Below, piece after piece: positions 16,541-43,000 of a DNA stretch of 64,000 nt (its first letter is position 1; each line of letters begins with the position of its first letter). This DNA is from Psilocybe cubensis. Taxonomy: Eukaryota. Location: the NCBI GenBank assembly GCA_017499595.2, contig CM039007.1, forward strand, positions 496,001-560,000, written 5' to 3'. Made by a program: the position numbers and the translations under genes. The notes under the pieces were generated by a model. That model worked only from the letters and a program-made list of their open reading frames with translations, was not told where the DNA came from and did not search any database.

Positions 16541-16794
16541 CTATTAATTGGTATTTTTGACGCTCTTCCTTATGTACTTGACTGTACTAGTTTATCTTTC
16601 ATAGTTTGTGTATATTTATGCAGACAGAGTAGCCGCAGACAACCATGATTGTAAAGTTTCAAATAACAAGATAATAATGAATACTTAATGCCGCAGCAGC
16701 TATGCAACTTGCTTTCGTTTAAACTCTCCTTTAACTCGTCTTGATTTCAAACACACATCTTGCAATCCAACACAACAATTGCTGCATTTTCAAC

Positions 16795-18648
16795 ATGGGA
16801 ATAAATGGACTTTCAAAGGTGCGTACAACGGAATAATGTTAGGTATAGTCTTACAGTGTCAAGATAGGCGATTAAACCCATTGAGGAAAGAGCATCTCTA
16901 TACGAGAGTGCCTCTAAGGTTTCTATGGTGGTCCTCTACGAATTCTTTTCATGAAGCTGTGTTACTTTTTAAAGTATCCTGCTATCATGGTCTTTGTGTA
17001 CGATGGACCGGGACGTCCAGCACTCAAGCGTGGTCGTCGTGTCCAAAATTCTCCACCATTCTGGACAGCTCCCTCTATGGACATAGTACAAGCGTTTGGA
17101 TATTATGTCCACCAGGTATGCCATAATTTATTCTATTGAATAACACTAGTAGCTAAGTTTTGACGTTGCCTTGTTTAGGCACCCGGTGAGGCTGAGGCCG
17201 AGCTTGCTATGCTCAATCAACACGGCCTCCTTGATGCAGTCATCACAAGTGACAGTGATGTTTTTGTGTTTGGAGCGACTACAGTCTATCGCACGTATGT
17301 AGACAATGTTATCAAATTGATTGAATTGGGATTGAAATCATGATAATAGCATCCCGGCCAAAACAAGACGTTTTGAAGATGAAATTGCTGTATACACGGC
17401 TGAAAACATATCAAATGTTATAGGACTAACAAAGAAAGGTCTCATTTTAGTGGCACTACTTTGTGGAGGAGACTATGACGCAGTAGGACTCGACGGATGC
17501 GGTCCAGCTACTGCTCTTGGCCTCGCAAAATGCGGATACGGTGAAAGTCTGATTCAAATAGTTCAAACTTTTCACGGAGAGCGATTGACTGCTGCCATTG
17601 CTCAATGGCGTTTGGACCTTCAAAAGGAACTTTTCTCAAACTCCAGTGGACATCTGAGAGGAAAGGAGCGATCACTGGCCAAAAGCATTCCTGATTCTTT
17701 TCCCAGCCTTGATACACTCTCACTCTACTTGGAACCTGTAGTATCTGCCGGTGCTTCGTCCCATCTTGCTCCTGTTTATGACTTTAGGCACAGAGAACCA
17801 TCTTTGAATCGTCTTGTTATGGTGTCATCGACTCATCTGGGGTGGAATACAGAAGAAATTATAAAGGACAAGTTCAAGAGAAATGTATGGGAAGGTGTCT
17901 TTCTGCAGATGCTATACTCGGTGAGTTGTCTATACTACGTTTAAATGCAATCGTAGCTGTTATTCATTGATCTGGCATATTACAGAAGTTTATTCTTTAC
18001 GACCACACCCAGCAGATCCTTGCCACACCCAATATTCAAGCACGTTTATTCAACCGTAAAATTGCTAATCGAGCTGGTCGTATGGCACCAAATACTTCTA
18101 GATACCAAGCCAGATTATTGGTATCGGCACAAAACTTCATCGCATTGATGAACCCCTCATTTCAGTCGTCTACTAATTCGGACACATTTCGAGCTTGGGT
18201 CCATATAGATGCCTTACCGGAAAGATTGCTTCAAGGTTAGTTTTGAGACAAATGGTATTTTCAGCGCTTACATTGACCTCTAGAGCTATCTGGGGATACT
18301 AAAACCACACAAAAAGCTGACAAGTCTCGGGTCATGTTTGTTGAAGGATCTTCTGGAGATAGCAGCCAACAAGCAGCTGCATTTCCAGAGCCAACCAAGC
18401 ATCATCGGGGCGGAATTCTTGAAGCCTTGGACCATATGATGGTAGACCTTGAACATATCAAATTATTGCAGGATATTAATCAATAACGGACTGCTCAGAA
18501 GGGAGAATATGCATCCTCAACTACAAGATCCCTGTTGATTGATCCCAATGTCATCGACTTGACAGAAGATTCTGACCATGAGAAGAGATCTATATCTATC
18601 CCATCTTCGCTGCCTGAAACTGAATGCTCAATAATTGATTTGACTTAG
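16795..18648 (+). pseudogene. XPG/GEN1-like nuclease of element A copy 2 (same lesion as 401-2254)
   Basis: Repeat of 401-2254 at +16394. Confidence 0.75.
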
Positions 18649-18730
18649 TTATGCTTCCAATATGAAGACACGGACATCATCTTTGCTTGTACCTAGTCAA
18701 AGTAGTATGCATTGACTAATCTACCGTATT

Positions 18731-18794
18731 ACTCTACTGTCTGGTATGCAACTCATGACTTGACTCTACTGTCTGGTATGCAACTCATGACTTG
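18731..18794 (+). repeat. 32-bp tandem duplication (second copy)
   Basis: Repeat of 2337-2400 at +16394. Confidence 0.95.
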
Positions 18795-20351
18795 ATGGTC
18801 GGGAAAGGCTTTGATCATATTAATCTGCTTCACTAATCTGCTTTGTTTCGATGAGACTCAATAATCGATGGGCACATTGCAGGGTGCAGGGCAGAGTGCA
18901 CAGAAGCAGATGATGATGGAAATGGGATGTGCACACACGGGGTATACTTGCACGACAGAAAAAAGTGGTCCTGCACATAAAGACGGCATTGTACAGTACG
19001 ACTCAACTTAGAATGAGGCCGGTGGGGTATAGCAGTGTAGGAAAGGAAGAGGGTGAAAAACTATGGGCAATCCCAGTGTATTTCCATGCCTGAAAATTCC
19101 TGGGCCACCCATGCGAATTGAGGCACAGTATACCGCAATCTCTCCATCACCAGTCTCCCAGGCATTGATGCCTGAGGGCAGCAATGTATGCGATAATATG
19201 CGGGGCGGAGCCAACAGTGGGCAGGATGGAGATGTGACAGCGGACGGGGCAGGACGGGGCAGAGGTGATGAGGGGGATACACCACAGAGGAGAAGAAGGC
19301 AGGGGGATCCAACTTGGGTGATAAGAGAAATCGACATACGCACCTAGTGTGTCGATTCCATCAACTGCGCCTTACACCTTGCATGGATCCATCCCAGCAA
19401 AAAAAATTAGAGAGTAGTTAGCACATAAGAAAGGATGAAAGAGAGCCTGCCGGCAACGGTGTATGACCATGCCTGAGGATTCCCAGTGTGCCGGCAGGCA
19501 GAAATAAAAAGAGAGGAAAGAGTGCTCACAGACCTGTATGCTCCCAGCGCGAGCTAAGACCCACGCAATCAAATGTATCTCGCGGGAGGCCACTGGGATA
19601 AACACGGGGGGAAAGTGCAATACAATCACCCATCGCGTGGACATATGTCAGGAAGAACAAAGGAAGAGACTGGACGAGTTTCTGCTTACCTTACTCACAC
19701 ACGCAACGCCACCATGCAATGCGGGAGCAAAGTGCGACGCGACACGACGTGATTTGGATGTCGAGTCTCTACCCACAAATACTAGTAAGTTGCTCACCTT
19801 ATTTTCTCTTCCTTACCCCACCACCATAGCGCGGGAGATAAGGCCAATATGTACGACGCGACACGACGTGCCGGCCTTCGGGGTGCGTGTTTGGATGTCA
19901 AGGGCGCCGTGTCGCACTATTTGACGCCCTGCCGCGCGACTTGTGACGCAAGACTGCAGAAACTCCAAAAACAAGGTAGAGTGGCAGAAATAAACAAAGA
20001 AAATAGATTACTCACGATTGGAGAAGTGTGACGCAAGGGAGAAACACGAATCAACGCGCATTGCATAGAGCTCGCCCCATGCTGAATCGCCTGGTTGAAT
20101 CGCATGGTGCCATAATGTCTCTCTCAGCGGTGTCAAATGTACACTCGTACACTCACCTTATTGTCACATTCTATTTCCACCTCTCCTCCACACACAATGC
20201 CCTTCCTGCAACGCGAAGCGACGCGCAGTCGCGAGAACTCCGCCATCCAAGCGATGCCATGCAAATCGGGTTCGGATGTTCGGATTGGGTCGAGGGCGGC
20301 CGTTCAAGCTACCTATTGAGGCAAAGGACGGCGTCGGGGGTCGAAATTCTT

Positions 20352-20667
20352 GTGACCTGAGCGGTCGAAGTCGCGCCAAACATTGGTGACCTGGGAGTGA
20401 CGAGCGGCGAGCGATCGAGGGGCGGGTCCCAGCGAGCGGAATGGAGGTGAAGGGACGAGTAAGAAAACGAAAGGGAAAGTCAACAAAAGCCGCGGCTGAC
20501 TCAGCTTAGCTAATCATTCCCGGTGACCCAAAGCGGGTGACCGGGTCCCCAGGTCACAGGGAGTTCGCTATAGAACGAGGAGACCCCAGTGGCCTTTCTA
20601 AGGGTCCGGTCACAAGGGTTTTGTGACCGCCTGCCAAAATTGGCGGGCAGTCACCAGAGTTGGTGAC
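20352..20667. other. Putative recombination junction A|B (second copy)
   Basis: Core GTTCGCTATAGAAC at 20563-20576; same as the 4169 junction. Confidence 0.8.
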
Positions 20668-21826
20668 TTCGCTAGGGACTCAAAGTGAGCTTTATGCCGG
20701 TTCGGCGATTGTAAATCAGCCGTGCCTCGCCCTATCTCTACACAAGCTCTGTCAGCGACCACCGCCATCACCATGCCTGTCCCCCCAAACCGTCCAAGCT
20801 CACGTACACAACTGGATTTCTTCGATAAACCGCCGCTCATCAACCCTCAGTTGGCAAGACTCAAGCCAACACCATCTAGACCAACTGCAACACCGTCTAA
20901 ACCAACAAGACTGCCAATTCAAACACTAACACGCTTTCAAACGCTAACACGCTCGCCATGCACTCTCAATTCCTATATACCTTCGTTGCTCACAAGCCCC
21001 GCTATAGAGGTGGAGGGTTTGAAACTGCTCACAACGGTGGTCTGAATATAATCAAGTCAGGTACGTTATTCAATATTATGTCGATCCTTCACTTATTGAT
21101 TGTGGAAGCAGCGCAGGCAGCAGTGCTCTTCTTGCACGGCCCTCACTGTCCCACGGACAATCACCGCCCTCTGTGTTTGAGTTGCCATTGCGCAAACACT
21201 GTCTTTTTGGGCATCAGACCCACGGGTGTTCTACTACCCTCGTTCTTGCATCTCAACCATCACATTGTCTTTCCTTGCGCATCTCAAGTCTCACGCGCGC
21301 TGTGGTGTCTATTTTCTCTCACAAAAGCACACAATCCTGTTGTCGCCATCTTACTGTCTTGTTCAAAGTCGGTTTGGATCACACGTTGGAAAACCAGAAT
21401 TGTCATTGTGAGTATTTCAAGATTCCTCTATTTTTTGACACAGATGCTCAAATGCGACACCAATTAACACCAATAGTTCAGATTGATCACAGCACAGATT
21501 GCGCGCAGTGTCAATTGAGTACTGCACAGCAGGAACTAGTGGGAATTGAAGGCGGTTGGCATTTTTGGGACGGTCTTGGTTTCTTTTCGTAAATCATGTT
21601 GCTTTCATTGTATTCTCTACTCACGGGGACCAAATACAACATTTACATCGAATTATAGCTCGGGAATCCAACACAGGCCTCAATTACCATTCAGGGCATT
21701 TGTAATCAACATTCTATGTGCCTTTATTCAACAATGAAACTTGGGCCACCCGTTGAAGCATATAACTTGCATTTTATGTTTTCGCTCTTTCTTATTTTTC
21801 CTCGCTAACAGCCTGTCTACATACTC

Positions 21827-24800
21827 ATGGATGGTACTTCTTTTGAGCCTGATCCCCTACTTTCTGAACACAATGATTTGCTTTATCCATCCCGGACCTT
21901 GGATGGCACAGTTGTCTCAACTCTTGAAGAGTACTCTGCAGCACTGTATGGTTTCTTTTTCTCAACCAAATTTGACTTGTTGATGTTTCTTTTAGTGACA
22001 CTATACGACGGAAAGAGCGTTTGAGGGAAGCATGCAGCAACCTCCATCTTTCAGTCCCTAAAAGTGCTAATTTAGAGCGCCTTCGTTCAGCTCTCAAATT
22101 ATACTGGTCGGTATATTTTTCAGTTTGTGGTAGTTGATCCTTTTTATTGACTTCTGTTTGATAGGTTTCCGCTGGATAGCAGTGCCGATACTGCACCTAC
22201 TACTATCAATACTGTGAATGAAGCCACCGAAAATCAAGCTGACATTGAAGATCAACATCTTTCCGCACAATCCCACAATATCATTGACGATGGAGCTCTT
22301 ATTTCACACTTTTCGGTTGAAGGTGCAGCAGCTGATGAAATACTAGGATACGACGAGGACAATGAGTTACTTGATGAGGATGATGAATTTGGAGAAGATC
22401 TCGACAACAATGAAGACGACATCATGGATACTAGCGATGACTTTGAACAATTTGTTACTCAGACACGGGTTGACGAGGCTAAAAGATCGGAGAAAAATCG
22501 ACGAGCAGGTGGCGTAAAAACACAGTCGGCAGTTGTAAGAGACTGGAAGGTATGGTATCATGTTTTGCTAAAGCTGTACTCAGCTCATGTATTCTAGATG
22601 TTTTGTCGCCAAGCATTGGACAAGGGTGAAATTCAAGATGACATAGTTGACTGTCATCATCTGCTCCTGTATATTCGACATTCAGCAGAGCGTCCAAAGC
22701 GTACTCGCAAGGGTCTTGATATTCCGGGTACTTATCTTGGTGCTGTAAGTTTCACCAGTAACAGATCGTGAACTGTCACTCATACTATCTAGTCCCAGTT
22801 GAAGAAACTCTACTTTGGTGCATTACGGATTCGAAAAATGCAAGAGGCCCTCGATCCAACACTTGAAAAAACTCGGCCCGCTAAGTCTATTCACGTTTGG
22901 GACTGTATAAAAGGAAGGATGAATGAAGCCTTAAATCGTAGTCGAAAGTGAGTGTTATTTTTTGTATAATCTTGACAGAGTTCTTATCCAGGAATCAGTG
23001 GCTTAATTCCAGGAGAGGATGCTCCTGATATTGTTGCCAACACGTTTCTGGCAAGTGTAACCGAAGAGCAAATGGCCAAAATAGGTGGAGGGTTTTTGAT
23101 GCATCGGGAATGTGAGTTTTTCCATCCAAGACAATTCACTTTGGGTTGAGCTTGATGAGATCTTCCAAGTGCGATCTGTCATTAATGGACATCTTGCATG
23201 GGCAGCCCAAAATGCTTCTGGGAATCGAGGAGACGACTTTCGTGCACTCAAACTTGCGGAACTACAACCATATGTTTTTCTTCACCCCAATAAAGAAACT
23301 GCAGTTGAATGTGTCCTGGGACTTCAAGGCGAAGAGAAAGCTGCTGCTAACCGTGGATTGCGTACAAAAGTTAATCCGGTTTACACAGTATTTATTGCAC
23401 ATAAAGATCCAACAATATGCCCGCTTGGTGCCTTTGCGTTTTATCATCATTTCATCCATGATGTAAAGAAGCTTACCGAAGAACTTGATGTTGATTGGTC
23501 AATCAACAAAAGTTGGAGACAAGTCCGTGTTTTGCATGGCAAGACTTCTCCAACAACCCCTTACCACGAACAGAGTTTGTATAACCTTTACGTCAAGGCC
23601 TTCTCACAGGCCAATTTTATTTCAAAAATCAAGGCTCACCTTCCTCGCCATATTCTTGGTTATAGCCAAGAGAAGATGGGGTAGGTGAACTTGGTTGAAC
23701 GTATATCTCAAATCATGATTGTTAACTTGTCAAATCAATTAGCGTCGATGGGGTACACACATCAAGATTGGGATGGGTTCGTGGTGAAACATACTTTGAT
23801 ACATACGCTCCAGCAATTCCAAAAGAGGTATTTTTGTTATGACATGTTATGGTTTTTTCTCTTACACCGTTTTCTAGGCCGTTCTCGGTGCTCATGGATA
23901 CAAAACACATGAAGTATATGACCCTCTGTGGCGACGTGTCCATGTTCCAGAGGCATTTTTAAACTTGGTATGCCCTATCGCCGAGGATATTCATGCCAAA
24001 ATTGTGGGAAGAGCCAATTTGTCGGGTGCAGCCAATTATTGGGCAATGGTAATATCGCTCCGCCCATATTTATTCCAGGTTTGCTCTTTGTTATCTTTGC
24101 TACTCATCACTCATATATATTGTAGTGTGGTGCTGCAATTTACCAGAAGTATCCTGAATCCGCATTATTTCGGCTTCCAGCTTTAGCAAATCCCCAGGTC
24201 CAACACTGGATGAAAACCGAGTATCCAACAAGCCTTGCTCACTTACAAGCTAACGCAGGAAGTACAGTGGATTTGGAACGTATACAAAACAACCTTCTTC
24301 GCCTATCTCTTGAAGAAATGAGGGCGCTTTTAGCAACCCAGGCAGCAGAATTGAAGGAAATGCGTCTTTTAATTCAGCGCCGTACTGATGTTCTTTCTCC
24401 AACCAAGGGATTCTCAAATTTGTCATATCAACATAGTTTAAACGTCTCCAAAGGTATCTTGACTTAACTTGCTATTGATATATTTCTGTGAATTGATTTT
24501 TCAACTATAGTCCCGCAACCTGTATTTACGCTAGCTGTGCCAGAGAGTCCACTGGCTAACAAATCTGCCGGTCATAGTGCTACTAAAAATAGCGATGATA
24601 CGGGAATTTATGTTTTGAATGCTCCAAATGATAGCAAACAACCGGGAAGCCCACTTCGCGCCTTTGCAAATGGATCACCAAAGGTTTCTTCTGAATCCCG
24701 TTCGCGGACACAAGTTGATCTTGTATTGCCCCATGTTGACGCTTTCTCAAACCCTGGTGTGCCGTCTTATGTTTCTAACACTACTATTGTCTGAATGCTA

Positions 24801-25544
24801 ATAAATCTATGGCCACACATTAGGTGGACCACAACTGTTTTGGCCGCCTGTTCTTGGTCAGAAATCAGTGACGTGGGAGCAAGTCTTTAGACTTATCAAG
24901 CGACCCGAACTGTTATGGGATGCATGGTGTCCATCAAAGACCCTTAACAAATATACACTCAATGAACAGTGGACATGTTACAATTCTGGCGAGCCGGTTT
25001 TTAATGCTTCGGGTACTCAGACAGGTATCAAGCCTCCACTTCAGCAAGTTGAGCTGCACTTTCAGTCAGCATGGCGAACTAAACCAGCAGTATGGTTTAA
25101 TTATCTTTTTCGAGCTGTATACATGGTTTAATCCTTTCCTTTTGTATACTAGGCACGTAAGGCGTGGCAGCGCTTTCGCGAAATTCCGGAGTTTATTCAT
25201 TCCGAGTCTACTTTACGTGGTGTATCCCCACAAATTGTAATCGAAGAGCTTGAAAAATCTGCTACAGGGGGCAATGGCAGAGTGAAGGGACTCTCAGCAA
25301 TCACTGATGAAATCTATGCACAACGCATAGCAAAGGCGCAAGCATCAAAAGATGTACGCATATTTTAAAACAAACTTCTGACCACCTCTAAATTCAATTT
25401 TAGGTAATATCTGCTAGTGTTCAAAGCACAAACTCCAATAGCACTCAAAGTGTATCTACAGAGCCGCCCATCGGTAGAAAAAAACGGCAAGCACCAGTTG
25501 CTCCAAGGAGGCGCACAAAAAATTTAGTTGAACCATCAGCATAG
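21827..25544 (+). CDS. Crypton-type tyrosine recombinase B, copy 2
   Basis: Repeat of 5433-9150 at +16394. Confidence 0.85.
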
Positions 25545-25726
25545 TGTAATCGATGACAGTGTAACCTTACTTAGTAGTATTGAGCCCGCACGTAACTTAG
25601 TTTGAGAAGTCTCATAATACAATGGTCATACTCTTATATCAACAATCCAATCTGAGTTATTTGACATCTCTTTTATCCATACACACAACACAGCGGCAAA
25701 TCACATTGACAAGTTGATAATTGACA

Positions 25727-27542
25727 ATGGGAATTAATGGGTTATGGCCAGTAAGAACCATTCAATGTCATGTCTGAGTCTTGGTGTGCTGAGTTGGCTA
25801 CTACAGACAATCAAAGAAGCGGAAAGCAGGATCTCAATTCTCTCTACTGCTCTTGACCATCGAGAGAGTTCCGGAAAAATTGCGATGAAGCTTGGGGTTG
25901 ATATAAGGTATTTCATGGTTTAAAATTTTGATCTATTAGTCTTAATTAGAATCAAAAGCACACTTATGAGCGAGTGTGTTGCAGCACTACAGGGACCAAC
26001 AATCAGTGGCCAATTCTATGGCGGTGCACTGCACATTCTATTCATGAAAATGTGTGAATTCATCAAATATCCCTTGACTCTAGTATTTGTTTATGATGGC
26101 CCTGGTCGACCTCTCATAAAACGCGGGACTAATGTTCGTGTAAACCAAAGCCCATTTTGGACCAATCCATCTAAAGATATCATTCGGGCATTCGGATATC
26201 ACATACACCAGGTATTGCATGCTGTCTGTGTAATTGTATTTAATATTAACTCCAAAATAGGCGCCCGGAGAGGCTGAAGCGGAATTAGCTATGCTAAACC
26301 GTAGAGGATTGATTGATGGAATCATCACTAACGATAGTGATGTTTTTGTCTTTGGCGCACAAACAGTATACCGCACGTAAGAACATTCTTCAAACTTGCT
26401 CAGTATACTGGATATTGAACATCAAATTTTATTAGCATTCCAACCAAGGAAAGACATTTTGAAGATGAAATGATTGCCTACACGTACTCGCATCTTTTGG
26501 ATTTAGGATTAACATCCGGTGGACTTGTTTTATTTGCCCTAGTCTGTGGTGGCGATTACGATTGCGCGGGTCTCAAAGGATTTGGGCCGTCCCATGCACA
26601 TGCTCTTGCATCGTGCGGATTTGGGGATCAGCTTGTCAAAGCATTCCAGACGTTAAGCGGTGTTGCTCTTCAGGATTTTCTCAACCACTGGCGCACAGAA
26701 ATCAAGCATGAATTATTGACAAATTCCCATGGCCATCTACATAGCCGTTCACCTGTCCTGTCCGAACGTCTCACAGAATCTTTCCCCGACCTTGACATTC
26801 TTGATCTTTACTTGAATCCACTAACTTCTGCCCCAGGTCAAAAATTTCAACCGTGGATTTTACAAGAGCCATCAGTTCCCGGCCTAATTGATGTTTCGTC
26901 GACACACTTGGGATGGCGATCCGAGGATGTACTCAGGAAAAGGTTCAAAGCCAAGGTTTGGGAGGGTATTTTTCTTCAAATGCTTTATTCTGTAAGTCAT
27001 CTATTCACATTTACGAGTGCAAAACAAGGTCTCATGCTGCTTCTAGCCCCTCATATTATACGACTCTTCCCGGAAACTTTTCGCTACGCCAAATACCCAA
27101 GCTTTGGTTCTGACCTGTAAATTGCTCAAGCGCAAAGGCTGTGTACAACCCAACGCTTCAGAGTTACATGCCCGATTGCTTGTGTCGGCTCAGAACTTCG
27201 TCACATTGATGGGTTTCCACTCAAACCAATCCAATGAGGTTGACCAATTTCGAGTCTGGGTTCCTCGGAGTATTTTGCCCCAGGAGTTACATACTACAGT
27301 CGAAGGTAGTTTTATCTAACTGACCTACACATTGTATACTACTAACCACTTGCTCAGGTTCTCAATCCGTAACAAGAATGAAGATAAATCCCAGTCGAAG
27401 GCGCAGACCCAGCAGCAGCAGCTCCACGATGGAAGAACAAAACAATTCCATTCGGCATTTTGAGGTCATTGATTTGACTGACGAGACCGAGGTCTCGAAC
27501 ATTCAATCTACATCCAATGTTATTGATCTGACTCAGGATTAA
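25727..27542 (+). CDS. XPG/GEN1-like nuclease B, copy 2
   Basis: Repeat of 9333-11148 at +16394. Confidence 0.88.
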
Positions 27543-28596
27543 TTCTGGCTTCAACAGACGTAGCAAGTATGTAACAGCGTAGAAAAGTAACAAAGAGTAG
27601 TGATTAATGTACACAAGGAATTATTTGATTATTTGAAAGCGAGGTCTGCAGTGGTACAGCACAGAATTTCTACCAGATAAACGCTAGCGGTGAACGTCTG
27701 AGCATTGGGGAGGGGAAGGGGGTGTAGGACTGTTAACTCACAAAAACAATATGCCACTCTACTGCTCAGAAACAACGCCACACCTAAAAGCTAACCTCAC
27801 CGCCAATCACGGTTGATGGCTGGTAACAACTGGCGTGCAGGCATTATAGAGTCTTCTTTCAGGGATAGACAAATGTGACTCCTCCGCATCCATGATGGCG
27901 GCAGCGTTGGAGTTGTTCAGCATCTCGTGTAGGAGCACAAGCTGGCGATGGCAGAGATTGTGGCGATCCGTGGACGCGCGCCACGACGTAGATCTCTCTA
28001 AGTGGCAACAAAATTCTTCAACTATATTAAACCAGAAAAAGAAAGAAAAACGAACGCACGCTCAACATTGTTCGCAAACTCTCGCACCATACCCAAATCC
28101 CTCCATAGCCACACAAACACACCACCCAGAAACATAAAGAATTTGAAAGCAAGGTCTTCTGTAACACATGGATATGATAAATGTTAGCGGCACATGGGAG
28201 GAAGAGGAAACTCACAAAAAATAATACAAACAATGCCGCCCAAAAGCTAACCCCCACAAACATCCTTGGGGTCAAGCCTACAATGCAGCGGAGGCGTACA
28301 TTAGCCAGTGGGCGAGAAGATATGGGATTAACATCGTTAGATTGTCAGCAGCATTAGTAAAAAGTATACAGTGGAGTTAAAAGAACACCGGGTGGTAGGC
28401 AGTGAGTGTATGACCATGCCTGATCATTCCTCAGCTCCCATCCACCAGTGCACGGAGAAGGGGGGTAGAGCGAGCAAAAAAATGAACAGAGAACACTCAC
28501 GTTTTGCGCAGATCGGCCGCTCGAATCCAACAAGGAAAGCGGGTGCCCGTGAGCACACGTATTTGGGAATTGACGGCGTTGGGGGACGAAATTGTT

Positions 28597-28845
28597 GTGA
28601 CCGGAGCGGAGGTCGACCAGCGAAAAGCTGGTGACCGGAGAGTGACGAGCGGCGAGCGATCGAGGGCGGGTCCCAGCGCGATGAGTTAGCAGGAGGCGGG
28701 AATGAAGGGGAGTGAGGCAGAATGAAGGTGGAGGTCAACGAAAGATCAGATTCGCGGGAGTATTACATAATCATTATCTAAGCAGTCCGGTGACTCGCCG
28801 CGGTGACGGCGTCCCCAAGTCACAGGGAGTTCGCTATAGAACAAG
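28597..28845. other. Right border of the array (attR-like half junction with host DNA)
   Basis: Left-hand boxes and core are present. After gaacaag the sequence is agagaaaatg rather than gagacccc, and the right-hand GTCAC/GTGAC palindromes are absent. Confidence 0.85.
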
Positions 28846-29702
28846 AGAGAAAATGAAAAGTATGGTACTCGAATTATTAGGCCATATTGGTGTGAGAGCC
28901 TCGCCCGCTTCTAATACCATTACGACGATGAACTATGCTAATTGCACAATGAACGAGAGGAATAAAATGGAAAACTACCAATACACATTATTTCAAGCGA
29001 CGTATTGCACTCACACACGTATAAAGGCGCCAAAGAGGCCCCGAATAAAAAGCGGATTGTTTTTTGCTTTATTCTCTTCTTGGCTTTGTTATCTATGCTT
29101 TGTGTCACTTGTGCTCTTTGCTTTATATTTCTTTTGCGAAGAAACGGGGACATGAACAGCGCTGACAACTTTGTTTGTATCTAATGCTGTCATGCTTCAC
29201 GTAACAGCAAGGACAAATACAGCGCCGAGCTGATCACATCACGGCATTACGGCAATAAGCGTTCCAGAGGAACTTGGACCCGACGACGCAACTCGTGCGC
29301 CTGACACGTCGTAAGTTGCAAAAAACGCCTAACACCAACGCTCCACCCAAAAAAAAAAAAAAAAGTTGCAAAAAACGACCACACAGTTCTTCCAAGATGC
29401 TACTTTACGAATTTGAAAACGAATCAGACTCTATACCTTCCAAAAGTTACATCAGCGGCGTTGGTACTGGTATACTTTACCCAAGGCCACTCGAAATAGT
29501 CTCGCGCTCAGTATTCTCAGAGCACCGGGCAGACATACCATGCACACAGAGACCCGGTATATTTACGCCCCTAACACTCTGCAATCAAATGATGTTGTTG
29601 CAGCTTGAAAACCTGTACACAACAATGGAAAAACATGGACAAATTGTAAACTGATTCTCGGATTGAGTTGAAAAAAAGAAGTTTGAAGCCAAAATACATT
29701 CG

Positions 29703-30548
29703 TTAGTCTGGCATTGGCACAACTTCCCATCCAACTCCAACCCCCCGTTTGCCCTCCAAACTTTTCAATGGCGCATTCAGAGAATTTAACAAAGGCTCTT
29801 TCCACGGCTGTGCACGTTCCCAATTGACAATCTCCTTGGGGAACCCCATTGGGCAAACGTTTCCTGCCCCAGAAGGACGGTCAATGACAATCACAAAAAA
29901 ACCGCCCATATTTCCGGACCGTCTCGAGTCTTCGTCAAACAACTTCATCTGTAGCTTCAATTCATGTCTCTGCTCCGGTGGAAATCCGTCAACACTTTCA
30001 ACCCTTGCTTCAAAGGCCAAGAAGAGCCTGCTGGACTTCGAATTCCCTTCTTCATCCACAACGGGGATCACGTCAATGGCGAGGATATTGCGCAGCCGTC
30101 GGTCAGGGTCGTTTGCCAAATCCAGCGCTTGGATCCCGTATTTGAGTAATGAGGGCCGGTGCCTCGCGCAAAAGGCGCTCAGCTTCTTCATCACATCCTG
30201 TGCATCCGGGTGTTGTTTGCTATTCTCCACGTTGATCCTGCATGCAATCTTGTGAGTCGGCCACGCTGCCTTTTGGCACTCTTTGCTCTAAGAGGGATGT
30301 GCAGATAGCTTGAGTAAAGCATCCATTACAAGCTAGCGTATACTGACACAGTACCAGGCGCGTTTACAACCCCCGCAGTTAGACAGGATGACTCCGGGTT
30401 CCTGACGCGACTTATAGCACCATTGACATTGGGAGAGATCCTTCCGAGTGACGTTAGGGAATTGTGATGTCCCCTGACCACTCGTTGGACAAACCAGTCG
30501 TTGTTGGTCGGTTTGAGTATGGGATTCTTGAACCCCGATTTGATTCAT
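29703..30548 (-). CDS. MYND-type zinc finger protein (paralogue 1), 2 exons
   Basis: CQWC...CGGCKRAWYC|SKECQKAAWPTHKIAC; intron 30288-30347. Confidence 0.88.
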
Positions 30549-31201
30549 GGTGGTGGTTAGAAACTGAGTTTCAGAGTCGGTGCCAGATCTAGCCCGCATA
30601 ATACCGGAAGGCCAATAGTCAGATACAAGACACAACCGGTACATCTGGGCAATTATGACGTAGTCTTAGCCTGTTTGAGTCCTTTTGCATCAGCCTCGTC
30701 AAAACTGCCTTTTAATATGCTCAAAATCTAATACCATATTTGCAAGGAAAACTTGGATATGAGAAAAACTGATCGAGTGATATCTGCACGCTATCTCCTT
30801 TAACCTGAGAAGCGAAAATACTACAAAGCTCACACTTGTAATGTTTCAGATATTTCATCATGTCCCAAAGCGCATTTGCCATTCCGATTGACCGACCGCC
30901 AGGTTGTGAAGGTCTCCAAATCGTAGGTAGTCTGACCACCGAAGTGGAAATCCAAGCGCTCTGTATGACACTTTTTCCAGGCACATAGAGGTGGGAATGC
31001 ACTGAATCGCCTTTGAATCGTTGAAGCAGCTCCGACACGACAGATCAGTGTTTGATTCCTGCCCCAAAGCTAACCCTCTTCAACTCACTCATTTTGCCAG
31101 TAATCGATCTTGAGACTTATAAACATCAACAATAAAATGAATACATTGTACAAGCATTTGCAATCTGAGTAGAAAGAAGTTTAAACATAAACATACACTC
31201 G

Positions 31202-32050
31202 CTATTCTGGCATAGGTACTGCTTCACATGCAATTTTAAATCCCCGTTGTTTTTTCTCAAGTCGTGTCAATGGCGCATTCAGGGCGTCTAACAAGGGCTC
31301 TTTCCACGGTAGCCCACGTTCCCACTTCAGAATATCCTTTGGGAACCCCATTGGGCAAACGTTCGCCACCCCAGAAGGACGATCAAAGACCATCACTAAG
31401 AAACCGCCCATACCTCCAGTCCGTCTCTGGTCTTCTTCAAACAACTTCATCTGTAGCTTCATTTCATCTCTCCGCTCCGGTGGAAATGATTCAATACTTT
31501 TAACCCTCGCTTCAAATGCATGAAAGAGCCTGCTGGACTTCGAATTCCCTTCTTCGTGTACAACGGGGATCACGTCAATGACGAGGATATTGCGCAGCCG
31601 CCTCTCAGGGTCGTTGGCTAAATCCAGTGCTTGAATACCGTGCTTGAAGAAGGAGGGCCGGTGTCTCGCGCAGAAGGTACTCAGCTTCTTCCACACATCC
31701 TGTGCATTTGGAAGTCGTTTACTCGCCTCCATGTTGACCCTGCACCTAATCTTGTGGGTTGGCCACGCCGCCTTTTGGCACGCTTTGCTCTAAGTGGGAT
31801 GTGCAGATAACTCGAGTGCCACGTCTGTTACTAGCCAGCATGTACTCACACAGAACCTTGCCCGTTGACAACCCGCACATCTAGACAAGGTGATGCCGGG
31901 TTCTTGAGCTGACTTGTAGCACCATTGACACTGAGTGAGGTCCTTTCGAGTGACGTGAGGGAATTGTGATGCCTCTTGGCCACTCGCAGGACGTGTCAAT
32001 GTTGGTTGGTTGGTTTGAGTGCAGTATTTGTCGACCTCAAATTGGCTCAT
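31202..32050 (-). CDS. MYND-type zinc finger protein (paralogue 2), 2 exons
   Basis: CQWC...CAGCQRARFC|SKACQKAAWPTHKIRC; closely similar to paralogue 1 over the whole length, same intron position. Confidence 0.88.
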
Positions 32051-32908
32051 GGTGGTGGTTAGAGACTGAGCATAACCAGCGCCAAATTTCATATCTATAT
32101 AAGGAGGAGACACGGTGGCACGTCCTTGGCAGTATGGCCATTGACATAGCTTGTTTGTGTCCTGTTGATGGCCTGAAAGGGCCTGAATCTTGAGTTGAAC
32201 ATCATTTATGCGCTTTGATATGTCCAAAGGGCTGTCGATATTTTTGCAAGCTAGATCCAATGCTCACCTCTAATGTCCAGGGCATCGTCCCTTTGGTTTA
32301 CCAAACATATCCGGATCCCTGATCAATACTGGGGGGGAGGCTAGAAAGCACAATTTCCATCTAACAAGTAAATCTTCGGAATGGTGAATAAGATTATTAG
32401 TAGTTCTTGAGGGAATTCTGAGGAAAGGGCTTTACAAAGGGGATCAAGCAAGGTCGAAGGGAGGTGCGTCTTTCAAGTTGTTCAGATCCTTCAGATGAAC
32501 ACGGCTGATCGTATCACGGCACTGAGTCGGCAAGCGGACATATCCGACTATAAGTACAACTTTAAGAAGAGTCGTTGGCAAGAACTTGCAAGAAGGGTGT
32601 ATGTATTATAGAAGTGCATTTTTTATCAGCCAATCTTTTAACTTTAATAGTACTGCTCTACTGAAATTGGGGTATGATCCCCCAAAGCTGCAACCGGACG
32701 ACTATCTCGTGCCGACCAACCGATAACGCTCGCGGCTCCACCACAAAAAAAAATCTTATGAGAATTATAGTAACCTTGACTTTTGCTGCTAAAGTAAAAA
32801 AAATCTATTAGCAAGGCCTGAACCTGAAGGCGACCCACGGTGATGCAGTAATATATTCATGTTTGGTGATGAATATTAGCATAGTTCGATTCTTAATGTG
32901 AATTAAAA

Positions 32909-33647
32909 TCAACCATTGAATACCATGCCATAGTTCAACTTGGTAATCAACGGTTCTCTCCAATCGTCCATATCGAGGCCTGGAGGGGTCGAAGGCAGAG
33001 CGTGAGTGAACGCAATTGGCCAGGTTATGGATATCATGCTCTCAACGTCTGTTGTTATGACCACCATTCCGCACAGTTGCTTATCTCGCTTCACTTCAGC
33101 CTTCAGCTTCTCCAACTCCAGTCGAAATCCCAATTCATGTGCTCCTCCGAGCTCGTCCATACGTCGGGGCTTTGCGTCAATCGCAAGGAATGCCTTTTCT
33201 GGGCGCAGCAACGATGCTCCAGGCGATGGACGGACTAAAATATGAAACACCTCGTTCTCCCATCTTTCGATGTTTCGATGCAAATCTAGACCCAGTATGC
33301 CGTAGCACATCATTAGCGGGCGTTGCTTCATGCAGTATGCACGTAGCATGTTGTGACGATCGTTGATAGAAGAGGTGGCCACAGATTTGAGGCCACGGAT
33401 GCCTTGGCATGTTGGCTTGTGACGTGGCCATGCTGCCTTTTGACACTCTTTGCTCTGCGTTCAGAAGTCAGTGAAGTGAGTATGATATATTGTCCATAAG
33501 ATAGTCAAACACTGAATAACGACGTACACAGTAATACGATGCTTGACAGCCTCCGCATTTGAAGAGAGTGACCCCATCATTTGTAGATTTCCAACAACCC
33601 TGACATTGCACGAGGTTTTTTCGAAGTCTTTTGTCTTCTCCAGGCAT
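32909..33647 (-). CDS. MYND-type zinc finger protein (diverged paralogue 3), 2 exons
   Basis: MPGEDKRLRKNLVQCQGC...CGGCQASYYC|SKECQKAAWPRHKPTC; C-terminal domain shares LDL and W(R/K)EPL..LN with the other two. Confidence 0.85.
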
Positions 33648-33761
33648 ATCTTCACACGAAATAGCAAGCGAGAAAGGCAAGTTGTTGGAGACAGTAGGAA
33701 CCTGAAATTTGCACAATCACGTGCACTTTTTGACTTCGACAAAAACTCAACGGGTGAATAT

Positions 33762-34443
33762 AGGACCCGGGAAGCTCCCCTATAAGCATGTCCGCCTGGG
33801 ATCCCAATTTTTGCCCTCAAATCCGCGAGATTTTGGGGCTCAAATCCGCGAAACCGGACAATGCCCGATAGGGGCTTTCCCGATTAGGAATTTTTTTTTC
33901 AGCCCTGCGGGGCGAGCTTGCAAAACCACTCGACGGCTCGACAACTCATTAATTGATTGCAAAAGAAACATATGGAGTAGATATTTAGGTGTTACAGGCC
34001 TCCATTACTAGTTATCAGGATAGTGAAGAAATATGTCAGGGTAGCAGAGAAAAGACATCTTCAAGTTTCACCAATATGCTGTATATAGGAAATGTAACCT
34101 TGCTTCGATTTACTACTGTGCGTTCCCGTTGATTTCCATCGTCTACCGCTCTTAGATAATAGACGCTGGCCAATCATTGCAATCTAAGAGGGATCCCGGC
34201 CCCAAATTTGGCCAACAATTAGCTGCAGCTGGGAAAAAATGGTTGCGGCATGCCGCCTTTGAACAATTACTACAGAAGTTTTTTAAAAATATGGGCCTCA
34301 AATCCGCCAAACCGGACTTTGTTTGGCCAAAATTTTGCCTGCGGCGCCCTCAAATCCGCGAGAACTGGACAAAGAAATTGCCATTTTTTGGCCTCAAATC
34401 CGCGAAAATCCGGACATGCCTGCACGGGAGCTTCCCGGGTCCT
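33762..34443. mobile_element. Non-autonomous TIR DNA transposon (MITE), 682 bp, 8-bp TSD
   Basis: TIR aggacccgggaagctccc (18 bp perfect, ~33 bp imperfect through gcatgtccg). TSD gtgaatat at 33754-33761 and 34444-34451. Five subterminal ctcaaatccgc motifs. Confidence 0.9.
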
Positions 34444-37035: not shown

Positions 37036-40000
37036 TCAAGCATTCGAACTAGCTTTAGCTTTCGCGGCCGATTCCAGCTCAGTGAAAGATCCGCTCTTCA
37101 TGCACATGTTTCTGAATATTCCATCCTCCTTGTTGATTAGATTCCAAGGGGTATCAAACTCGACGATCTGAAATCGTGGGTTAGTTCGTGAATTAAGTGG
37201 TTAGAAAACGGAGATGTCTCTACCTGTCCTTTGTCCAGAACGATTAAACGGTCATAGTCAATGACAGTACGAAGACGATGTGCGACTGGGGTATATGCCA
37301 TTAGTCACAAAGATAGAGTGTATAATCCAGAGTCAAATCACCTGTCAGAAGAAGAGAATTGGTAAACTCTTCACGAATGGTAGTTTGGATTTTGGCATCC
37401 GTCGCAAAATCGATGCTGCTGGTAGCCTCGTCCAATACAATAATGGAACTGCGACGAAGCAACGCCCGGGCCATCGCAATCAATTGTCTTTGACCCTGCG
37501 AGAAGTTAGTTCCCCCTGCAGATACCTTGGTATCAAGCGACACCGAAGCCTTGGAGTCAACATTGGTTGAAGCTGCTGACATGGTGTCAATGGTGCTTTC
37601 GCGATCGTGACCCGTTGGGGTTGAAGGTCTGGTTGGATTGCGCGATGATGATGCACTCTGATCTCTGGACGATTCGAGAGACAAATGTGGACTGTCCGTA
37701 ATCATATGCACTCTGCGCAACACGTCCAGGCATTCAGCATCAGTGTGGTCACCTAGCAAATGATTAGCCATGCGTAGAACTTAATTTGATGAGACGTACC
37801 AAATGGATCGAGGTTGTCTCGTAACGTCCCTGAGAATAGAGTGGCATCCTGTAATATATCAGATGTTGCTCTTCGCCATTCAAATAATGCTTACTTGAGG
37901 GATGAAGGTCTGTAGAAGTACATCGTAAGATCAAGTGGGCCAGGTATAAACAGAATGCTTACTAGTCGTGAGCGCAAGTCGTGAATTCCAATAGTAGATA
38001 TGTCAATTCCGTCAATCATGATTCGACCATTGGTGGGGTCAACAAATCTCAGAATACTCATAGCAAGTGTAGATTTTCCACTTCCTATAATGTATATTAG
38101 AATAGGTCGAGGCGAGGTTGCTAAAGGCGTACCAGTGCGACCTAAAAGGCCAACTCTTTCCCCAGCTTTCAGAGAGAACGACACGCCATGCAAAACGGCC
38201 GGCAGATCTGGGGCATATTTGATCTCCAAATCTTCGACGACAACGAGCGAGTCGTTATTAGAACTCGATGGCCAGTAAGCGGGTACGCGATTTGATTCAA
38301 TTATTGCGGGCGGTTCCTGAGGAAGATCAAGGCTTTGCGGTATGTCAGTCCAAATTCTGTGATGGAAGATGGGAAAACTGACTATTCAACGACACGTTCA
38401 ACAGAGCTATTGGAAATTGAGCACCAATCAGAGTCAGTATTATACACCACTTACTTCAGATCGAGCTCGAGACCTGCAGGCAAAGCATTAGACCATGCAT
38501 CGTATGACCGAAAGAGAAAGACTTACCAGTCCAGAATCGACACGCCCAATAAACTGCGATCACGTGATATGATTAACAAGCAAAATCGTACGAAGATAGC
38601 CAGCGTACCTGAAGATGTAAAGGCCATTGCGCTTGTAATACAGAGACCAGCGAGGCCGGCACCGTTTGCGAGCGTAGCTATAGAGAACAATGTGGTAACC
38701 AGTACAGAAAGTGCACCGAGAGCATCGAAATTGAGTAGCAGCCATCGGTTGGTCATCCAGAAAGTATACCACATCTTTATCGATCGTGTCATCAAGTAGT
38801 AAAGCAAATATTAACAATAAAATACATACCTTGGTGGTAACATCAATCTTCTTGTGCAAATTATCCAAGAATCTCCTTTCGGCAGAGAAAGCTCTGACGG
38901 TGACAATTCCTTCAAGGAGCTCTCCGAAGTCTGAAAAGATAGGGGACCTCGAATTAGATTCCATTCTTCGAAGGTCTCGGCCAGTGTTGAGATATCCGAT
39001 CGCCAACGAACGATAAGCAAAGCCTATGAAAATTGCTGGAATGATGAAGTAAGGGAAGACAACGCTGTTGGCCAAATATATGAGAGCAGAAATGAATTGA
39101 GTATTAAAGTTAAACTCACGCAACAGTGATGATGGCAGCAAAGAATCCCATCAGAGAGGAGTTGACGGCTTGCAAAGATCCAGCTAGGGAGGAGTCAATG
39201 GTTTCTACATCCTTCCCAAATCGATTAAGCATGCGGCCTAACAAAAGAATGAGACCGGCAAAACAAGCGAAAAGAATAGCAGCATACCCTGTGGGGTTGT
39301 ATCATGGAATCGGAAGGTCGCTCGTACAACAGTTACGAGAAGTTGCCTAGTATGACATTAGCCCTAAGGTCACGGAGATATGGAAAGAATCAAGTATTCA
39401 CGCACTTGAAAAGAATGCGGGAGGCTCGCAATGCACCCGTATACTGAATCATTACTGAAGTGATACTTGCTAGTGCAGTTGCCATACCAATGCCAGCGTA
39501 GATCCCGATGTAAAAGAGGGGATGTTCAGAGGCATTAGGCCATTGAATACCAAATATGCCTTTTGGGGGCGCTAGGCTCTGATAAGTATGGTAATGTTGA
39601 TGATTCATGGAAAGGCCATCCATAGATGCTTCGTGTTCAGCGGTGGCAAACGTGCGGAACTCGTAGAATGCTGGAGAAGTCTCGTTGCCGATCTTATACG
39701 CTTCACCCCAAGTCTATGAAATGATAAGCAAGGACATATTTTGAAACCAACATGCTGACCTTGATCCAAAGTTTCTCGGAAATGTTCAAAAATTGAATTA
39801 GGACAATGATCAAGGCTAGGAAAGCCCATGTCCAGTACGAGCTAGATCAACGTTGAATCAATGTCAGGAATTATCGCCCAAGAACAATAAAGACGTACGA
39901 GGCCTTGAGGTAACTCTTGTAGATAGACCACTTGACTCCCCCTGTCTCTCTATGCTCATCTTTGACAAGTTTCCTGGGCTTTTTGGTAGCGTCGGCCGTT

Positions 40001-43000
40001 TTAGAAGGATCTTCGAGGGTTTCTTCAATCGCAGCTGCATCCGCCTCAATAGCCTCTTCCTTGTGCGCGTCAACAGAGGCATCCAATTTAATTTCTTCTA
40101 GAACACCTTGTTCCCTGAGTTCCTTGACTGTTCCTTGGGTGTCGATGCGGCCATCAAGCATACGGATAAGATAATGGGCCCCAGGAAGCACAAGTTCGAC
40201 ATGATGTGTTACCAGTACCTAGACGGAGTGAGTGATTCACGCTTTACAAAGATAGACGACGAGGTATACTCACGACAGTTCTGTTAGCCAAAAGTGGGCC
40301 TCGCAAAAGCTTCTCATAAAGGAACCTTGAGGTATGACTGTCGACCGCACTGAGAGGGTCGTCCAGCAGCACATATTTGGTTCGAGCATAAACGGCTCGT
40401 GCCAGCGCAACTCTTGCTTTCTGTCCTCCTGATAAACTCACACCCCTGGTAGACAATGCTTCAATATCAAAGTGGAGAGCAATAGGGAAAAAAAAAAAAA
40501 CAACCGACCTTGCTCCAATCTCTGTTGCATCGCCGTCCTCTAACATCTTCAAATCGGGCCTGAGAGCACAGGAATCGATAACCATGTTATATCGTGCCTC
40601 ATCGTACGGGTACCCAAACAGGATGTTGTCCTTGATTGATTGGTGCCTTAACCATGGCGATTGGGCCGCGTAGGAGATACAGTGCATGAGTCCGTTCTCA
40701 TCGACGCGCGACGGCTCCTTGGACATAATTATACGTCCTTTTGTAAGGGTCAATTCACCAAGAACGGCGAGCTATATATGTGAGTTCAATGACTAGATCG
40801 TGCTCTAAAGATAATAGAACCTACGAGAAGTGCAGTTTTCCCAGAAGCGGTTGGTCCAGTAACAACAGTCAATTCACCCTGCGGGAAAACGACAGATATA
40901 TCTCTTAACTCGAACACTCGGTCTTGAGGTCCCGTAACACTCCTTTCAGAGGCGTTATCATCAACGGTTGTGCTGGCGTCGTCGGCAGTCAGGTCGGCAG
41001 TGGTAGTAGGTAAGGTAGTTTTCCCGTCACTCTTGCCTTTATCTTTATCCACTGCATCCGTTACCTCATTCCATTTGAAAGACGCATTCTCGAGCCCAAG
41101 TCCTTCATCGTCCGCACCAGGCAATAGGGGCTCCGAATAGTCCTTCTTGAGCGAAGAAACCTGATCTGTGACCTCTTCTTCGTCGAGATAGACAGAAATC
41201 CTATTGAGCGCGACACCAGTCTGAAGATCATATACAGGTTAGGGGACTCAAAAAAAATGGCGTCTGCCACTAACCTGCAAAATTTGGACGATCCAGGTTG
41301 GGATAACATTCAGTGGTGCTCTGGGTGCCATTATTAATTATAATGACCACCTGATAAGTTACGTCATACAAACTTACCTGACCATATTGAATAGAGCAAT
41401 TGCCTGTGATTTAACGCGTATATTAGGTGTGACAAAGGTGGGATGGCAAGATAACTAACCGTGAAAGCAGTACTAATGGTCAGCTCATTGCCCTGTAGAA
41501 CATAGGCCATAAACGAGATGATGGATACTAAGATCGGAGCAGTCGTCCAGAGAAGGCCAAACAAAACCGAGTTGATACGAGCTGAGAGTTTTGCGTTAGC
41601 ATGAACAATACAGGTAACATGATTCTAAATCACCTTTAACCATCCATTTCATTTCAAACTCTCGTGCGTCTAGGGCCTTGCCAATCCAACGCTCTTCCCA
41701 AGCAAAGAACTTGATGAATTTGACCTGGTTCGTGTTTGCAAGGTTATCGGGAGGTACAGACAATATATTAAGGAACGCACTGCGCCAATTAACTCATTAA
41801 GGACTCCCATACGCTTGTCTCGTGCAGCAAGCACGCCTTTCTGGATTCTGATACTTCGGCGAGCGATGAAGCTGTTGAGAGGCCATCCGACAAGCAATAC
41901 TACAAATCCTGCAAAAGCGCTGAGACCCAATAGTCTAAGAACGAAGGTAAGTATTCGTCGATGTTGAAAAAGTGGCGCGCTTAACTGATACAGGAATACA
42001 CCAGCGATGATAATCTCAAAGGGCGCTGTATCAAAGATGATTAGAACTCGTCGAAAGGGACCGTTTGATGAAGCATACCGCCATATATGAAGTACAAGGC
42101 TGAAATTGTCATAGAAATCTATGAACAACATGAGATTGTGGTTTGCATCGAATAATGGTGGCCTACCCTATTGGCGTCCCCAGCCATAAGGTTGACTATT
42201 TTTCCAACATCAGCTCCGGCTTTGGGGTCATCAGCTTTAGCTGCTTTTTCCTTTTCTTCTTTCTTCTTCGCTTTTGATTTGCCTTCGAGGGCGCATCAGC
42301 ATTATGACGAAAATCGTGTTGTAATTTATAGGAGACACACGTTTGGACTCTTTGGTCTCGACACCATTTGATGGGGATTCCTTAACTTCCTCCTCTTTTT
42401 TGTCTTTGTTGACGACGCCTGAGAAATCTTTGCGTTTCAATGCCTTGTCGTATATCGCCGCCATCAGCTCGGAGCGAATCCGCGTTGCTGCCCGTCGGCC
42501 AAACCATAGGTGCTGAACGTCAGCTTGTGCCTATAGAAATATCATGCCGGTGTCAACAAAGTTGATGGTGATTGGCCAAACCTTCAAAATGGAACATGTG
42601 AACGCGAGGAACGCATATATGTATGCTCGCGTGCGGCTTTCCGGCGTTGGCTCTTCCAAGTCAATTAAATCTAGGATCCGCCTTAAGATAAGTTAGAATT
42701 TTATTGGAGAATGCTAGACATGGCACATACTTTAGGAAAAAAGGACCTGCATAGTTAAACAACACGCTGACAAAAGTTAAGGAGAAATCCAAGCTAGATA
42801 GTCGTATGTGTGAGAATCTAACAATGCGAGCATATGCTCAACCAACTGACATGAGATCAAGGGAGTTGGCCGCCCATAGGCGACGGAGCAGGGTGGAACG
42901 TTTGATGGAGCTGAACTTGACAAAAATAGGCCTCGATTGCATTGTGGGACTCATATCCCATACGTCCTTTTCTTCAAGCGTAGTATTTGTTCCCTATTGT

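Follow-up and report, generated by a model that had tools for sequence, protein, structure and literature searches.

A 64,000-nucleotide stretch of the Psilocybe cubensis genome (assembly GCA_017499595.2, contig CM039007.1, positions 496,001 to 560,000 of the forward strand; hereafter the window, to which all positions refer) very probably carries a head-to-tail array, (Y)-X-Y-X, of two diverged CryptonF-type transposable elements named X and Y, in which a 24-bp core forms the right terminus of each element and the exchange with the target takes place in the terminal tetranucleotide GAAC. A Crypton lineage conserves the core as its right terminus: the right ends of eight independent relatives stop at a homologous ...AGAAC, and the array stops where the element meets host DNA.

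Organization of the repeat array

The core 24-mer GTCACAGGGAGTTCGCTATAGAAC is present in four exact copies on the plus strand of the window, at 4159, 12425, 20553 and 28819, and found no match in 100 dinucleotide shuffles, even with two mismatches allowed. The spacings between consecutive copies are 8266, 8128 and 8266 bp, which gives a period of 16394 bp. Self-comparison of the window shows a single long repeat of 12,451 bp, in which positions 1-12451 and 16395-28845 are 100% identical. The first mismatch (12452/28846; TATAGAACAAG followed by GAGACC versus TATAGAACAAG followed by AGAGAA) lies 3 nt past the end of the core (12448/28842).

The 16.4-kb unit consists of two diverged elements that are collinear, X of 8266 bp and Y of 8128 bp, in the order (Y)-X-Y-X followed by host DNA. 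The translations of the X open reading frames (ORFs) match those of Y in the same order, with 40-83% amino acid identity over approximately 5 kb. The non-coding DNA of X and Y is alignable at the two ends only, with identities of 78% at the left end (4159-4275 versus 12425-12542) and 73% at the right end (12178-12448 versus 20327-20576). No rRNA, tRNA or other Rfam family matched in the window, which rules out an array of ribosomal DNA or of other RNA genes.

Ends of related elements in metagenome contigs

The exact core 24-mer had no match in metagenome contigs. A scan of these contigs guided by the recombinase sequence found 43 related loci, with a total of 232,966 bases. The right-end pattern GTCAC-N8-9-CGC-N3-AGAAC was found in eight of them (L008, L012, L018, L029, L030, L031, L035 and L042), in all cases on the recombinase strand and downstream of the recombinase, while in 200 shuffles the mean was 0.015 and the maximum 1. 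Locus L041 duplicates the site of L042 and was left out of the count. The flanks of the eight right ends all differ, and similarity is lost directly past AGAAC; L012, L030 and L035 resemble one another upstream and show no similarity from the base that follows ...GCTATAGAAC.

Pattern and profile searches found 11 left ends (L004, L008, L009, L012, L013, L014, L018, L024, L033, L035 and L040), whose consensus is (A/G)NG-(G/C)A(G/C)ACC(C/T)C..., mostly GAGACCCC or CAGACCCC. Pairs of GTCAC/GTGAC follow in ten of the 11 and are unclear in L004, where the profile match covers columns 1-58 only. The four bases before the left end are GAAC in eight cases and one-mismatch variants of it (GACC, TACC or GAGC) in the other three. 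Four loci contain a complete element, of 9660 bp in L012, 6733 bp in L035, 6589 bp in L018 and 6628 bp in L008; three of these elements are flanked by GAAC...GAAC and that of L012 by GACC...GAAC. GAAC terminates all right ends, eight in the metagenome loci and four in the window.

Some of these loci show further particularities. In L012, a 39-bp inverted repeat (95%) at 3553-3591 and 13681-13719 surrounds the complete Crypton, about 260 and 160 bp beyond its ends, and the Crypton seems to be inserted within a small element with terminal inverted repeats. L024 shows a nuclease gene in opposite orientation (4-817, minus strand) upstream of the left end, which suggests a second, inverted element in tail-to-head arrangement. 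L003 (about 4282-4327) and L005 (about 5971-6016) show a right-end-like GGTCACGGCCAGTCCGCCTAATCAT without the final AGAAC, and in the L003 family the nuclease gene was not found in 5.3 kb downstream; the L003/L005 type may be a sub-lineage with another exchange sequence.

Comparison of strains

A 2-kb probe across the terminal junction found matches in nine public runs of related strains, belonging to four studies, and the best-matching run has 0.84 of the sampled words. Four of the 11 listed runs (X1, X5, X6 and X10) were compared over 12400-31000, word depth being a hint and not a copy number. Run X1 (contigs) shows element X at a word depth of 17-20, Y at about 11 in exact-match contigs and the right flank at 8-10, and one of its contigs has X from 20572 behind 806 unlike letters. 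Run X5 (contigs) shows X at a depth of 24, Y at 0 in 10 of 13 bins and the right flank; in a 10.7-kb contig, 3428 unlike letters stand before X, which starts at 20575, and none of the listed contigs bridges 28842. In run X10 (raw reads), X is found at about flank depth, Y is essentially missing and the right flank is present. This run has loose ends with mixed flanks, in 32 reads before 20572 and 69 reads behind 20576, as well as 88 reads with loose ends before 20531, which show a variant right end. Run X6 (contigs) has neither X nor Y and contains the right flank, in contigs whose match starts at 28839 and 28842, after 133 and 142 unlike letters, respectively.

Element X has at least three different left neighbours, and in each case the break falls within AGAAC. 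In the run without X, the host flank is present from GAAC on, according to the start positions of the X6 contigs. The presence or absence of X and Y among the four runs, together with the differing left neighbours of X, shows polymorphism.

Two other features were observed over the compared region. At 29151, reads and contigs of X1, X6 and X10 depart from the window sequence (in X10, 50 reads with one consensus), and X6 resumes it at 29161, which looks like a structural difference between strains in the host flank. A piece of about 30 bp in the 3' non-coding part of Y (19073-19103) is covered in all four runs, even where Y is missing, and has loose ends to either side. This short dispersed repeat is loosely like the left-end motif CCCAGTGGTATTCC.

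Probable location of the exchange site

Because GAAC precedes eight of the 11 left ends and ends every right end, the exchange is placed in this tetranucleotide, which would act as exchange sequence, as target and as 4-bp terminal direct repeat. The three bases ANG before GAGACC belong to the element. As the ANG of the left ends does not recur after the right ends, the AAG at 28843-28845 is taken as host DNA that matches the left end of Y by chance.

A sequence-only reading of this DNA had listed the four core copies and had seen the repeat identity stop 3 bp past the last of them, and both points were confirmed. It had interpreted the core as the recombination site of a tyrosine recombinase, which agrees with the Crypton-type recombinase encoded in both X and Y and with the ends of the eight independent relatives; it had proposed aligning the flanks of other copies as a check, and the eight metagenome right ends stop at the same motif and are not scattered. 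The junction between element and host at 28819-28845, for which it had given 28829-28845, is borne out by the run without X, which keeps the right flank from 28839/28842. The proposed crossover in the 6-bp GCTATA spacer has to be moved, as the exchange maps to GAAC instead. The letters GTTC-GCTATA-GAAC are present in the core, but not as a conserved binding palindrome: GTTC-N6-GAAC was rejected in this role, given that GTTC reads GCCC, GTCC, ATCC, ATGC or GTCC in five other core variants. Finally, gaacaag had been considered either the element end or a host half-site, and each view holds in part, GAAC being common to target and element and AAG belonging to the host.

Motif clusters at the element ends

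The left end of both elements reads RAG-GAGACCCC, followed by two GTCAC/GTGAC inverted pairs that are kept in 5-11 relatives. Three full junctions of the window align on both sides of the core, and the fourth (28819) on the left side only. Pentamers GTGAC/GTCAC number 10 per 450 bp at each of the full junctions versus a window mean of 0.77. Left of the core lie five direct copies, an inverted copy opens the core, and two inverted pairs lie right of it. The offsets of these pentamers from the core start in the two junction types are -201/-222, -167/-188, -156/-177, -30/-29, -16, 0, +56, +70, +97/98 and +110/111. As in attP-like sites, the exchange point has clusters of a repeated motif to its left and right, in positions that are conserved, and these motifs are candidate protein-binding sites. 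The inverted arms of 11-13 bp around a 6-8 bp overlap that define loxP/FRT-type sites were not found, the GTTC/GAAC pair being of only 4 bp. Centred on AGAAC is a weaker and statistically insecure dyad, CACAGGGAGTTC ... GAGACCCCAGTG, whose halves lie 13 bp apart and are complementary at 8 of 12 bases.

The recombinase gene

The NDC10_II domain was above the Pfam cutoff in two of the 45 ORFs of at least 110 amino acids (aa), which lie at 6706-7287 in X and at 14441-14776 in Y. The 45 + 99 = 144 ORFs of X and Y with at least 55 aa gave no match to a reverse transcriptase or to another transposase. The X exon is 99% identical to P0001, a 1448-aa UniRef protein of Psilocybe cubensis that maps onto X at 5433-11145 and contains NDC10_II, a GCR1_C-like match and XPG_I. 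P0001 has 131 relatives; among the 120 matches listed, all genus names are of what we take to be Agaricales mushrooms, XPG_I is also found in 11 proteins and PF12550 is carried by five. GCR1_C in P0001, the gene model of X, covers residues 871-927 with 21.0 bits (E 4e-4), below the Pfam cutoff of 23, and reaches 31 bits in the homologue P0023.

Alignment of 91 homologues shows that the candidate catalytic residues R376, K413, H513, R516, W538 and Y548 (P0001 numbering) are kept in 89, 85, 84, 85, 87 and 83 sequences, respectively. The spacing between R516, W538 and Y548 is 22 and 10, close to the 23 and 9 of Cre, and with roles assigned from this spacing R-K-HxxR-W-Y is the candidate catalytic set of the gene 1 recombinase. 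An AlphaFold model of P0001 residues 190-640, obtained with 41 aligned sequences (pLDDT 77, pTM 0.69), has a two-domain fold whose top solved match is Ndc10 (4aco, E 1e-6). The next matches are the Flp and Cre Holliday-junction complexes (E 7e-3; TM 0.50 on Cre), and further ones are QRICH1, XerH and phage integrase. Gene 1 of X and Y is a CryptonF-type tyrosine recombinase with the NDC10_II fold and a GCR1_C-like tail.

P0001 was also considered as a single fused recombinase-nuclease protein, which was rejected because a stop codon at 9148-9150 follows a 50-bp intron (8960-9009) and a separate ATG is found at 9333, where it opens the MGINGLW N-terminus that characterises this family of nucleases. 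The public 1448-aa model, named XPG-I domain-containing protein, is an annotation artefact that joins two adjacent genes, and the 11 of 120 listed homologues with both domains may be fused models of the same kind.

The nuclease gene

Gene 2, located downstream of the recombinase gene in X, encodes a GEN1-like nuclease of the XPG family. XPG_I scores 68 bits in P0001, and residues 966-1251 (286 residues) match the PDB chains 5cnq and 6grb with an E-value of 7e-33. The motifs VF(V/Y)DGP, APGEAEAE, (E/N)D(V/S)D and GGDY align between P0001 and 5cnq, an entry code carried by the GEN1 crystal structure paper in its available text (PMC4695337). Weaker matches were to Rad2/XPG, human GEN1, FEN1 and EXO1. 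In 13 related loci, the recombinase gene is followed downstream by an MG[IV]xGLW start with a splice donor, and a same-strand nuclease gene lies downstream in eight of the 11 related metagenome loci that have at least 3 kb past the recombinase domain. It was not found in the remaining three (L003, L014 and L024), of which L014 and L024 have barely 3 kb of room. A word-based search for relatives of the nuclease exon gave three proteins only and was uninformative.

The nuclease of Y starts with MGINGLSK, with a change from W to S in the N-terminal motif (16795-16960; also 401-566), and the stretch equivalent to P0001 residues 966-1011 (about 45 residues) is unrecognisable; this copy may be defective. 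Y may rely on the nuclease of X.

Comparison with known systems

Like CryptonF elements (Crypton-Cn1 and CryptonF-1_cRei), X and Y encode a tyrosine recombinase followed by a candidate GCR1_C-type domain, lack a reverse transcriptase, have neither terminal inverted repeats nor long direct repeats, and show at both ends a short direct repeat that matches the target, of 4-6 bp in this group and GAAC in X and Y. In the available text of two papers (PMC3212892, PMC9977147), the short direct repeats at the termini are, in the Crypton model, substrates of recombination with a near-identical target, and fungal CryptonF elements show 6-bp direct repeats. For CryptonF-1_cRei of C. reinhardtii, the part available of the second paper gives a CACCG terminus, a CAYCG target and clean excisions (PMC9977147), and the CryptonF make-up of the recombinase, as well as the derivation of Ndc10 from CryptonF, was described by Kojima and Jurka (PMC3212892, in the text available). 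X and Y are unlike CryptonF in having a second conserved gene, the GEN1-like nuclease, in their long structured ends with 10 GTGAC/GTCAC motifs and in their mixed tandem array. No description of Cryptons in head-to-tail or tandem arrays was found in the literature searched, outside which lie Goodwin et al. 2003 and the termini list of PMC3212892, nor did this literature yield one of a Crypton with an XPG or GEN1/Yen1-type nuclease; Crypton together with Mycena, Psilocybe or Agaricales was not found among the literature matches listed. The added nuclease gene, the GTGAC-rich ends and the mixed tandem array make X and Y a new variant relative to known Cryptons, which could be pre-empted by Goodwin et al. 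2003 or by that termini list.

Ndc10/Cbf2 of budding yeast, a subunit of the CBF3 kinetochore complex, is the top fold match of gene 1 (4aco) and belongs to the same Pfam family (PF16787). Unlike it, gene 1 lies within a mobile unit, and each of its residues R, K, HxxR, W and Y is conserved in 83-89 of the 91 homologues. The X and Y junctions resemble attP-type integrase sites with arm sites, which combine a short exchange sequence with many repeated motifs on both sides. They also recall tandem integrative elements such as Salmonella genomic island 1 (PMC2297512), where a resident junction is the target for a second copy and a head-to-tail array results. X and Y differ from both systems in being eukaryotic and nuclear, in their 4-bp target and in that the members of the array are different elements.

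Gene 2 resembles the Holliday-junction resolvases GEN1/Yen1 of the XPG/FEN1 superfamily in its MGINGLW N-terminus and in the acidic motifs DG, EAEAE, DSD and GGDY; unlike them, it is found inside a transposon and beside a tyrosine recombinase. The giant Starship transposons of ascomycetes have recombinases of the DUF3435 family, are far larger and carry cargo. X and Y share with them the fungal host and a tyrosine recombinase, whereas the Pfam scan gave NDC10_II only and no DUF3435. Starships move via a circular intermediate, according to the available part of a preprint (bioRxiv 10.64898/2026.09.21.753150).

Proposed mechanism and alternative explanations

We propose that the recombinase would excise the element as a circle, whose joint would rebuild the right end and the left end and would read ...TATAGAAC-RAG-GAGACC, or ...GCTATAGAAC-GAG-GAGACCCC in the case of X. 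The GAAC of the circle joint would recombine with a genomic GAAC, and the end of a resident element, which offers GAAC and half of the binding sites, would be a favoured target. X and Y, with all 24 core bases in common, could integrate side by side in this way and would produce a mixed tandem array with precise heterologous joints. Positions 28839-28842 would be the last exchange point, with host DNA from 28843 on.

A two-enzyme transposition may be suggested as a speculative and rather doubtful extension, in which the recombinase would swap one strand pair at the 4-bp GAAC microhomology and the GEN1-like nuclease would resolve the Holliday junction, for which branch migration through unlike flanks would not be possible. 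If true, it would explain the use of almost any GAAC as target despite the elaborate sites on the element side, the nuclease gene that travels with the recombinase gene in most relatives and the rise in copy number.

Several points weigh against the array as a product of Crypton integration. Recombination, circle and excision are deduced and none of them was directly seen, and a circle joint and a tandem junction are indistinguishable in these data. The empty site of run X6 is deduced from the contig start position alone, the extra identical AAG is attributed to a chance of roughly 1 in 30, and the GCR1_C score of X itself is 2 bits under the Pfam cutoff. A tandem junction was found in none of the 19 metagenome termini (eight right and 11 left), so arrays are atypical of the lineage. 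In addition, the partial Y at the far left may be peculiar to one strain or may come from an expansion in the assembly, because the 12.45-kb copies are 100% identical and the depth of the Y tail in X1 is near that of the flank.

The same facts feed an explanation that we judge unlikely, if still to be taken seriously, in which the elements are Cryptons that end at the core and the X-Y unit was repeated by unequal homologous exchange, replication slippage or assembly expansion, the stop of the array at the core reflecting no more than the end of an element there: it would fit the complete identity of the two copies over 12,451 bp, the word depth of the Y tail in X1, nearer to the flank than to X, and the lack of tandem metagenome termini. 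However, the first X-to-Y and Y-to-X joints would still require a site-specific event, and these joints are precise fusions of right end, GAAC and left end between elements of about 70% identity, too diverged for homologous exchange. X1 also shows, independently, X at about twice the flank depth. It is improbable that the array is partly an artefact of assembly and that the true locus has fewer units. Although the perfect identity of the copies, the incomplete word coverage even in the best-matching run and the approximately single depth of the Y tail in X1 point that way, the X1 contigs cover Y, X and flank, and X at about double depth with Y present implies at least X-Y-X with both junction types; the terminal junction c4 is independent of the number of units.

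Domesticated and immobile host genes, an Ndc10-like gene and a GEN1 paralogue duplicated in tandem with the core as a regulatory motif, are very improbable. NDC10_II is best known from a domesticated kinetochore protein and the GTGAC clusters could be promoter elements, but the presence of X and Y varies between strains, their left neighbours differ, and the relatives lie in unrelated flanks and start and end at the same motifs. We give still less credit to a tyrosine-recombinase retroelement (DIRS, Ngaro or VIPER) or to an array like that of long terminal repeat (LTR) elements, with the core in a shared terminal repeat. The gene for a tyrosine recombinase, a head-to-tail layout and approximately 370 bp of similar sequence at each joint are compatible with it; however, reverse transcriptase, RNase H and Gag are unmatched in the 144 ORFs, recombinase and nuclease are the only coding content, and the single copies in relatives have unlike left and right ends, without terminal repeats. 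An LTR or DIRS-type retroelement was rejected, as no reverse transcriptase was found among these ORFs.

Features of the array and neighbouring genes

Table 1. Features of the X-Y array and its right flank (window positions)
Feature	Start	End	Strand	Remarks
Partial Y copy, 3' 4.2 kb	1	4182	+	identical to 16395-20576; truncated at the window edge; the Y nuclease gene starts in it at 401
Core c1, tandem junction of Y right end and X left end	4159	4182	+
Element X, copy 1	4183	12448	+	left end GAG-GAGACCCC..., right end ...GCTATAGAAC; 8266 bp per period
X left-end site	4183	4300	+	GAGACCCC, then inverted pairs GGTCAC-N9-GTGACC and GTCACC-N8-GGTGAC; nhmmer E 7e-26
X gene 1, multi-exon tyrosine recombinase (NDC10_II) with GCR1_C-like C-terminal part	5433	9150	+	last intron 8960-9009; stop TAG 9148-9150
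X gene 2, GEN1-like XPG-family nuclease	9333	11148	+	start MGINGLWP, then GT donor; intron about 9358-9412 (about 55 bp); stop TAA 11146-11148
X right-end site	12178	12448	+	five direct GTGAC, then core (GTCAC-N14-AGAAC)
Core c2, X right end and Y left end	12425	12448	+
Element Y, diverged relative of X, 8128 bp	12449	20576	+	gene 1 about 12828-16540; nuclease gene 16795 (MGINGLSK) to about 18230
Core c3, Y-to-X junction	20553	20576	+	copy of c1
Element X, copy 2	20577	28842	+	identical to copy 1 (4159-12448 = 20553-28842)
Core c4, terminal right end of the array	28819	28842	+
GAAC, putative crossover tetranucleotide	28839	28842	+	also terminal direct repeat and target
Host flank	28843	29151	.	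found in the strain run without X and Y; other strains diverge after 29151

Next to the array, two tandem repeats with 80% identity (29675-30568 and 31173-32070) show sub-threshold MYND zinc-finger matches, with ORFs at 29706-33883 on the minus strand, and form a small duplicated gene family adjoining it. Farther away, the window contains a duplication of an MFS transporter gene with 76% identity (56347-58209 and 59682-61559, minus strand), and ABC-transporter exons at 37304-40771 (minus strand) and 55517-56014 (plus strand).

Significance for Crypton biology

Among the classes of eukaryotic DNA transposons, Cryptons are the least understood, and their ends are usually hard to define; their activity was first observed in 2023, as given in the available text of PMC9977147. 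This lineage shows sharp ends, with a 4-bp exchange site, dense candidate protein-binding motifs, two near-identical active-looking copies and natural strains with and without the element, so in vitro reconstitution and the detection of circles are directly testable. The conserved GEN1-like nuclease beside the recombinase indicates an accessory function, so far unreported, in transposition by tyrosine recombinases. The mixture of X and Y in one array suggests that ends are recognised across diverged members of the family, and composite elements as well as local structural variation of mushroom genomes could arise by this route.

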